Assembly (NCBI GenBank): GCA_021734065.1
Contig: JAIPJQ010000001.1
Location: 19,251 to 83,250 of the forward strand
Direction of reading: 5' to 3'
From: Fidelibacterota bacterium
GTDB taxonomy: Bacteria; Fidelibacterota; UBA8477
DNA: 64,000 nt
The position numbers were made by a program, and so were the translations under genes. Position 1 is the stretch's first letter, and each line of letters begins with the position of its first letter. Below are positions 41,416 to 41,600 of the stretch, one piece after another. The notes beneath the pieces were generated by a model that was not told the origin of the DNA, searched no databases, and saw nothing but the letters and a program-made list of their open reading frames with translations.

Positions 41416-41425
41416 TTATCCTCCT

Positions 41426-41458
41426 AAAAATAAAAACCGAACGCTTCAACATCCGGTT
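41426..41458 (-). terminator. intrinsic terminator-like hairpin abutting the RBS of the PorV-like gene (candidate attenuator)
   Basis: The minus-strand RNA reads AACCGGAUG-UUGAAG-CGUUCGGUU followed by UUUAUUUUU, then AGGAGGAUAAAUG. The stem is 9 bp including two G.U pairs. Those pairs are mismatches on the plus strand, so the structure is strand-specific. Confidence 0.5.
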
Positions 41459-41571
41459 TCGTGCCTTTCGAGACCAAACCACTCAATCCGTAAGTGGTTC
41501 ATTCATGTCATCTGGTTGTTCTAGCTCCGAATTACCAATGTCTCGATAGGCTATCCCCTGTTTATGCGGCG

Positions 41572-41600
41572 AATATAGACGGTTCAAAATGGTGTGTCAA
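41572..41600 (-). promoter_or_regulatory. near-consensus sigma-70-type promoter for the outer-membrane locus
   Basis: The minus strand reads TTGACA (41600-41595), a 17-nt spacer, then TATATT (41577-41572). The predicted TSS is near 41565, about 150 nt upstream of the ATG at 41415. Confidence 0.55.

Follow-up and report, generated by a model that had tools for sequence, protein, structure and literature searches.

On the minus strand of a 64,000-nt stretch of contig JAIPJQ010000001.1 (Fidelibacterota bacterium, assembly GCA_021734065.1; hereafter the window), a cluster of envelope genes headed by a gene for a PorV-like outer-membrane barrel is preceded by what, judged from sequence and its conservation, is a real feature, a promoter followed by an attenuator-type leader. 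The source is a Marinimicrobia (Marinisomatota) genome from lake water metagenomes. Positions 41426-41600 (minus strand) probably comprise the promoter and the ~135-nt 5' leader of the PorV-like cluster, the leader being a cis-acting transcription attenuator and a diverged member of a phylum-wide family. It is best described as a putative member of an undescribed phylum-wide RNA family tied to surface glycan genes and to genes of the type IX secretion system (T9SS). We infer that the leader's closing terminator works, that the genes behind it need read-through, that this read-through is modulated, and that a shared input lies behind the shared leader. The parts of the element, in the direction of transcription, and the first gene behind it are the following (SD, Shine-Dalgarno sequence; MFE, minimum free energy).

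41595-41600, minus strand: -35 hexamer TTGACA, part of the genome-wide strong-promoter consensus
41566-41577, minus strand: -10 hexamer TATATT (41577-41572) and GC-rich discriminator CGCCGC (41571-41566)
41554-41558, minus strand: SD-like GGGGA near the 5' end, in an A-rich stretch and unpaired in the MFE fold
41540-41551, minus strand: 5' strand of P1, GCCUAUCGAGAC, the outer helix of the closed domain (RNAfold and covariation)
41527-41539, minus strand: core AUUGGUAAUUCGG, diverged from the family core UU(C/U)G(C/U)UAAAGG
41537-41513, minus strand: small hairpin inside P1 (RNAfold)
41476-41500, minus strand: inner hairpin, AACCACU (41499-93) with AGUGGUU (41483-77), extended to 10 bp (RNAfold and covariation)
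41463-41474, minus strand: 3' strand of P1, GUCUCGAAAGGC (RNAfold and covariation)
41426-41460, minus strand: intrinsic terminator, stem 41460-41433 and U-tract UUUUUAUUUUU 41436-41426
41413-41425, minus strand: true SD AGGAGG (41425-20) and ATG (41415-13) of the PorV-like gene
40042-41415, minus strand: PorV-like gene for an outer-membrane barrel of 457 aa, next after the leader on this strand (Pfam PorV PF19572, E = 8e-21)

Fold, terminator and promoter of the leader

The minus-strand leader folded by RNAfold gave an MFE of -49.6 kcal/mol against -33.8 +/- 3.7 kcal/mol for 200 dinucleotide shuffles (z = -4.26), none of which was as good, and the fold is thus far stabler than expected from the shuffles. 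All three helices proposed in an earlier reading of this DNA, made from the letters alone (hereafter the sequence-only reading), are contained in the MFE structure. The 7-bp long-range pairing of UCGAGAC (41546-41540) with GUCUCGA (41474-41468) is present at its place and is part of a longer helix than was noted, continuing through GCCU (41551-48) and AGGC (41466-63), and the perfect 7-bp hairpin AACCACU/AGUGGUU (41499-41477) extends to 10 bp.

The third helix, found as described (41458-41426), is the terminator hairpin, which begins three nt after the closed P1 domain and consists of AACCGGAUG (41458-50), the loop UUGAAG and CGUUCGGUU (41443-35), followed by UUUUUAUUUUU to 41426. Its stem has 12 pairs as scored in the scan, and the hairpin alone amounts to about -11 kcal/mol. 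AGGAGG and the ATG follow directly, and with a gap of only 10 nt from the U-tract to the ATG there is indeed no room for a promoter between them. A PorV-like transcript from its own promoter would have to pass the terminator, as had been claimed, the promoter lying upstream and the conserved intrinsic terminator before the ATG. Read from the opposite strand, the G.U pairs of the terminator stem would become A.C mismatches; they are retained in the three closest relatives, in agreement with the RNA-level function that had been read from them. Among a total of 174 strict terminator-like hairpins in the genome, seven are followed within 45 nt by an SD and an open reading frame (ORF), and that of the leader is the nearest to its start codon.

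The promoter is present as stated by the sequence-only reading, TTGACA-N17-TATATT at 41600-41572 of the minus strand; direct reading gives a spacer of 17 nt between TTGACA (41600-41595) and TATATT (41577-41572). It equals the strong-promoter consensus of the genome, TTGACA-N17-cTATATTnGCCGC(G)CTTT with a GC-rich discriminator, which recurs genome-wide (for example on C101, C146, C166, C86, and C68) and can also be written TTGACA-N17-cTATATT(n)GCCGC(G)CTTT, a form matched by the leader promoter at 41566-41600. Several tRNA genes and genes for small basic or ribosomal-protein-like, probably highly expressed proteins are preceded by this consensus, the gene identities being our own reading of the printed sequences. 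Since TATATTCGCC is part of the consensus, it is highly conserved in orthologous leaders. By consensus scan, the leader promoter is the sole 11/12 match within 39.5-45.5 kb. Placed from the spacing and supported by the consensus promoter, the transcription start should lie at about 41565-41562.

These parts suggest a course of events in which the strong, housekeeping-type promoter would initiate an RNA whose 5' end carries the single-stranded SD-like GGGGA; the closed rod-like domain, P1 around two hairpins, would form next, and three nt further on the canonical intrinsic terminator, its U-tract ending 10 nt before the ATG. Most transcripts would stop there as a small leader RNA, and only read-through RNA would bear the SD and the downstream genes. 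As to the conditional attenuator proposed by the sequence-only reading, the terminator-bearing layout stands and is conserved, whereas its conditional working is something that we infer.

Conservation and covariation among orthologous leaders

All 40 relatives searched, and 277 of the 301 genomes of the phylum, have an ortholog of the PorV-like gene, and within the order of the window the upstream 170 nt of these genes are alignable. When P1 (14 bp), P2 (7 bp) and the terminator (8 bp) were laid on a plain MAFFT alignment of 28 leaders, 90.6% of the cells were paired against 30-49% with the partners slid; seven pairs were changed on both sides, in a total of 26 cells, and none of 500 shuffles scored as high. 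Within the family of the window, the RNAalifold consensus of four leaders includes the three helices, with 7 of 38 pairs compensatory. One compensatory pair falls in P1, and the inner-hairpin pairs 73/95, 74/94, 78/90, and 81/87 are kept through two-sided changes in the four leaders. Compensatory changes were thus detected at the order, family and terminator levels (for the terminator see below), and the conservation of the structure in orthologous leaders, which had been named as a check of the proposal, is borne out.

Three letters of the core do not vary in the order-level alignment, namely G41536, U41534, and A41533 (columns G31/T33/A34 of alignment A1; G50/T52/A53 in alignment A4), and the canonical core UUGUUAAAGG is retained by L011, a relative of the same family. 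The position of GGGGA is conserved across the order and the gene classes, most relatives having GGAG there. In the leader of the window and the relatives inspected, no AUG, GUG, or UUG after the 5' GGAG/GGGGA is usable as a start codon.

For 29 of the order's 30 genomes, a covariance model of the order-level alignment (R1) gave exactly one match per genome, and all of these matches lie a short way upstream of the PorV-like gene, at a distance of 36-49 nt in most, 14-18 nt in the family of the window, and 84 nt in one. No second copy was detected in the source genome, and a repeat or mobile element was rejected on account of this single-copy state. Given one copy per genome and the linkage to the PorV-like gene, the leader is considered to be a cis element rather than a repeat or an independent small RNA gene. 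A scan of metagenomes for more close relatives gained only a duplicate of a known leader.

For a survey of the terminator, upstream regions were sampled without bias from about 25 families. At least 10 families (f1, f2, f4-f9, f13, and f14) have, ahead of the start codon, a hairpin with the base ACCG.../...CGGU and 6-9 U, the end of the U-tract being 13-26 nt from the start codon in the first ortholog set and 7-22 nt in correctly delimited porV-class matches of the model R2 (see below). For 30 terminator segments aligned with MAFFT, 97.9% of the cells were paired and four of eight pairs were compensatory, and the base of the stem is nearly invariant in sequence. In other families (f19, f15, f10, and more), a shorter GGAG leader ends in a hairpin without a U-tract. 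The predicted terminator is present in some lineages and absent from others.

The leaders of this second kind (L119-L173 from f19, f15, f10, f21, f22, f28-f30, f18, and others) are about 100 nt in length, have the same promoter type before the PorV-like gene, and carry GGAG, a CGCUAACGG-like motif, and a GC hairpin adjoining the SD, with no U-tract.

Related leaders before other envelope genes

Across the phylum, R1 detected nine loci away from the PorV-like gene, which precede genes for BacA/UppP, Bac_transf (WbaP-like), Poly_export with SLBB (Wza-like), and, in a single case, Peptidase_C25 with propeptide (PorU-like). PorU is the T9SS partner of PorV. Because R1 aligned the interiors of distant leaders poorly, a second model (R2) was built from a separate multi-gene alignment of 16 leaders in four gene classes, with the order of the window left out. 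A total of 56 matches of R2 were obtained in 49 of the 301 genomes. Among the 37 newly fetched matches, the downstream gene is uppP (13), porV-like (12), WbaP-like (6), Wza-like (5), or folP (1). Seven genomes have two matches, and the six second copies fetched precede porV, uppP standing after the other copy. In the R2 matches examined, the terminator lies 7-153 nt before the start codon of an envelope-type gene, or in one case of folP.

From 5' to 3', the layout of the family is an A-rich end with GGAG, 6-12 nt often with UAUA or UAUC, a core helix, a hypervariable apex, and the terminator. The core helix is UUCGUUAAAGG / CCUUUAACG, or UU(C/U)G(C/U)UAA(A/G)GG / CCYUUARCG in general form, and its G.UA is invariant in both independent alignments (A1 and A4). 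The terminator has the form ACCGAAYG-loop-CRUUCGGU followed by 6-9 U, and the interior of the leaders varies from about 20 to 90 nt. Among the 64 members aligned by R2 (alignment A5), 91.7% of the cells are paired, 14 of 18 pairs are compensatory (105 such cells; 0/500 shuffles as high), and in the terminator 7 of 8 pairs are compensatory, all of these being pair counts that lean towards structure and are inflated somewhat by the fitting of A5 to the R2 model.

The leader of the window is linked to this family by the order-level alignment A1 and by the R1 matches on uppP, wbaP, wza, and porU leaders; R2 in turn matches L014, L015, L016, L021, and L029, leaders of the same order, and the canonical core kept by L011 is a further link. 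Before the uppP gene and the WbaP-like gene of the source genome, no such leader was detected. No description of the leader family was found in the literature. The sequence-only reading had recognized no known riboswitch class in the leader, and Rfam 15 agrees: no family matched in the window at gathering scores, the 451-nt region gave one chance-level match (E = 9) outside the leader, and none of 20 diverse leaders gave a match at E <= 1.

Two of the matches are noted separately. The leader L285 (G051:C1:32283-32411; R1 E = 3e-4) precedes a PorU-like gene that encodes more than 817 aa and carries the domains Propeptide_C25 and Peptidase_C25. The leader L311 (G087:C15:4095-4212; R2 E = 1.4e-5) stands directly before a folP-like (dihydropteroate synthase) ORF, is the sole match outside the envelope classes, and may be spurious or have drifted.

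Points against attenuation and family membership

The inflation of the pair counts in A5 is one of several points that weigh against the proposal of an attenuator belonging to a phylum-wide family. R2 gave the leader of the window itself a weak score, 18.7 bits (E = 0.0017 when 351 nt were searched), and did not find it at E <= 0.01 among 208 kb; this leader is a diverged member as far as can be read from the alignments, its membership resting on the order-level intermediates. In the test for an antiterminator, the energies of duplexes formed by the terminator 5' arm and loop with the 55 nt that precede the terminator were compared with 300 shuffles per leader, and in the family of the window complementarity stayed at the level of the shuffles (mean z = -0.54, 0/4 significant), giving no conserved alternative fold. 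A metatranscriptome RNA run (X7) of a wastewater relative contains a 172-nt contig that matches the leader exactly (L202:331-502), with no contig over the gene body; this contig (depth 3.2) starts ~20 nt upstream of the predicted start and ends in the large loop of the terminator, is uninformative on 3' ends, and is weakly compatible with an abundant short leader RNA. Lastly, a partial terminator of fixed strength, subject to no regulation, would be consistent with this anatomy as well.

Control of read-through and rival explanations

If termination in the leader is modulated, the agent could be a ligand, a peptide, a protein factor, or a general condition of transcription. A small-molecule riboswitch would use the rod-like domain as the aptamer for an envelope metabolite or ion (nucleotide sugar, second messenger, or divalent cation), the binding of which alters termination, and the sequence-only reading had named this as a candidate. 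Genes with linked functions, located in different operons and lineages, are preceded by the same family, in some genomes twice, a classic riboswitch distribution that keeps this explanation alive; the expression platform is of the terminator type, the few invariant letters are G.UA, and antiterminator-like complementarity is significant in porV leaders of one genus and in L014. The details of the leader agree less well with it. No Rfam class matches, and the length of the interior ranges from about 20 to 90 nt. The invariant G.UA and the GGAG lie in or beside one helix strand, the 5' strand of the rod, or in the 5' single strand and not at junctions, and the apex is hypervariable and free, a pattern that does not suggest a ligand pocket. 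The antiterminator signal is absent in the family of the window, in f2 (1 of 10 significant, namely L014), and in the wbaP (0/8) and wza (0/6) classes, and a classic antiterminator as a general feature was rejected on these shuffle-level values. Altogether, a riboswitch of this kind is unlikely. Since no conserved antiterminator or aptamer-like core was found in the lineage of the window, modulation by a factor acting in trans, or by some general condition of elongation or termination, gains in likelihood, and the leader is somewhat more likely to be a factor- or condition-dependent attenuator than a classical small-molecule riboswitch.

In four porV leaders of genus g10 in f6 (L316, L318, L320, and L324), the 3' strand of the core helix, UCUUAUAACG, is a near-perfect match of 10-11 nt to the 5' arm and loop of the terminator, CGUUAUAAGA; in L316 and L318 the two sequences pair. 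This classical antiterminator is missing from the leader of the window, and the four genomes carry a second member of the family before uppP.

A leader peptide was also considered and rejected. The candidate was an AUC-initiated frame of eight codons, present in the family of the window and in one f9 leader, but AUC does not normally serve as a start codon; only two codons of the frame are left in L181 (AUC GAG UAA), and no such frame exists in the g4 leaders.

As a protein factor, the UpxY family came into consideration, the source genome encoding an UpxY-family NusG paralog (G000:C12:1198-1662; NF033644 123.8 bits, cut-off 100). Its occurrence in the phylum does not follow that of the leader: NusG-level matches were all that was obtained in several leader-bearing lineages, namely f25, f7, G043 (a genome of one contig), and many genomes of g4. 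An UpxY-like NusG paralog was thus rejected as the general read-through factor, because a protein missing from leader-bearing lineages cannot be the general partner, though in the source genome it may still act on the leader.

The UpxY-like gene (minus strand, C12, locus L277 1117-1653) is located about 18 kb before the first base of the window, adjoins ruvA/ruvC, and lies outside polysaccharide operons. It is the sole match of the nusG model TIGR00922, the housekeeping nusG not being detected in this 82%-complete assembly.

An unregulated leader, that is, a stabilizing or structured 5' UTR (untranslated region) of the ompA or STAB-SD kind with a leaky terminator that keeps operon mRNA at a fixed low proportion of promoter firing or serves as an insulator, would account for the 5'-proximal SD-like GGAG without a following start codon, for the strong and constitutive-looking promoter, for the lack of a detected switch structure, and for the GGAG-plus-hairpin leader without U-tract in many families of the phylum. 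It would leave unexplained why a full terminator with 6-9 U is retained in four gene classes and no fewer than 10 families, why the stem base is near-invariant in sequence, which is more constraint than a simple insulator needs, and how a regulon-like gene set arose, which is hard to explain without a common input. We regard it as improbable.

With its own strong promoter, strong terminator, and stable fold, and with the leader-only contig in one metatranscriptome of a relative, the element might be a dual-function small RNA, the ~135-nt terminated leader being a product that acts in trans and operon expression a by-product. This is very unlikely, for the leader is always fused to the SD of the downstream gene, and each target gene has a single copy of it; a conserved unpaired seed that could pair with ribosome-binding sites is missing, the 5' motif being SD-like and not anti-SD. 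Nor was any leader in the order found to be free-standing, as a small RNA gene would be: each one lies just upstream of the PorV-like gene.

Upstream neighbours and other terminators

Upstream of the leader on the minus strand, rpiB, SHMT, nrdR, an ABC ATPase, and a Trm112-like ORF (stop 41652) follow one another in this order, and the sequence-only reading had itself allowed that the hairpin might do no more than end the nrdR-mlaF-trm112 unit. The ABC/Trm112 unit is found upstream of the leader only in f1, f2, f4, f8, and f9, and the terminator-bearing leaders of f5, f6, f7, f13, and f14 have different upstream neighbours; since the neighbours vary in this way, the hairpin is not just the terminator of the upstream operon. 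That it is a mere terminator of the nrdR/ABC-ATPase/Trm112-like unit, as might be suggested by the lack of another obvious terminator between the Trm112-like stop (41652) and the promoter and by the conservation of the ABC/Trm112 neighbourhood across several families, is extremely improbable and largely refuted, because a conserved promoter lies between the unit and the hairpin so that its own transcripts reach the hairpin, because terminator-bearing leaders also occur before unrelated genes (uppP, wbaP-like, and wza-like), and because the hairpin covaries with the upstream domain as one RNA.

The ABC ATPase (41893-42654) and the Trm112-like ORF (41652-41900), both on the minus strand, overlap at ATGATTAA. 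Downstream of the PorV-family barrel, the cluster continues with a 958-aa protein carrying a T9SS sorting domain and then a 1067-aa peptidase/propeller protein.

Terminators of the same canonical form as that of the leader occur at ordinary gene ends in this genome. One of them, AAAACCCCGGG-UUUAAUG-CCCGGGGUUUUUUU at window positions 16796-16830 (minus strand), follows a 463-aa ORF (16854-18245) and lies between convergent genes; the weak match of R1 to this site is due to the hairpin alone.

Comparison with known systems

A close parallel is found in the capsule operons of Bacteroides, in which UpxY proteins keep transcription from ending early within the untranslated leader (PMC7315117). As in that system, the lineage concerned here is of the FCB group and related to Bacteroidota, the genes are of the surface-polysaccharide type, and there is predicted premature termination in the leader to overcome. 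The two differ in that the UpxY-like gene here is located outside the operon and is absent from some leader-bearing lineages, and in that the leader RNA family here is itself undescribed.

RfaH with ops (JUMPStart), LoaP, and the EAR RNA of the Bacillus eps operon are systems in which a short leader element lets RNA polymerase pass terminators in long operons for lipopolysaccharide, capsule, or exopolysaccharide. The downstream gene set here is of the same kind. The ops sequence GGCGGTAG is absent from the leader of the window, and Rfam found neither EAR nor any other family in these leaders. Moreover, what those systems confer is processivity, whereas here the terminator is inside the leader, directly before the first gene.

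With terminator-type riboswitches, the leader shares a structured 5' domain joined to an intrinsic terminator and the occurrence of one motif before several related operons; it differs from them in belonging to no known class and in having no evident conserved junction core and no general, mutually exclusive antiterminator. Leader-peptide attenuators (trp, his, and phe) likewise have a promoter-proximal leader that ends in a terminator just before the first gene, but here there is no ORF with a canonical start, and the only recurrent frame is AUC-initiated. The ompA-type 5' UTR with STAB-SD is the long structured UTR of an abundant outer-membrane-protein mRNA, with an unused SD-like sequence near the 5' end. 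The leader resembles it in the structured 5' UTR and in the 5'-proximal SD-like sequence that is not used for initiation, and differs from it in the terminator that abuts the ribosome-binding site and in being common to a set of different genes.

Biological significance

Marinimicrobia (SAR406) are abundant and uncultured, and their gene regulation is almost unknown. It is conceivable, though doubtful, that the leaders represent an RNA sensor of a new class, be it a riboswitch or a factor-binding site, that coordinates throughout the phylum the undecaprenyl-phosphate glycan pathway (UppP, sugar-phosphate transferase, and Wza) with T9SS attachment (the PorV-like protein and the PorU-like C25 peptidase). 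If so, this sensor would make one RNA regulon for building the cell-surface coat, and the attachment of T9SS cargo would be linked to the supply of glycan at the level of gene control. Even as a fixed attenuator, the leader would represent an uncatalogued, well-supported structured RNA family fit for Rfam. If it is shared, as the alignments suggest, by the PorV-like barrel, uppP, the first enzyme of surface-polysaccharide synthesis, and the exporter, the leader family would define an envelope regulon.

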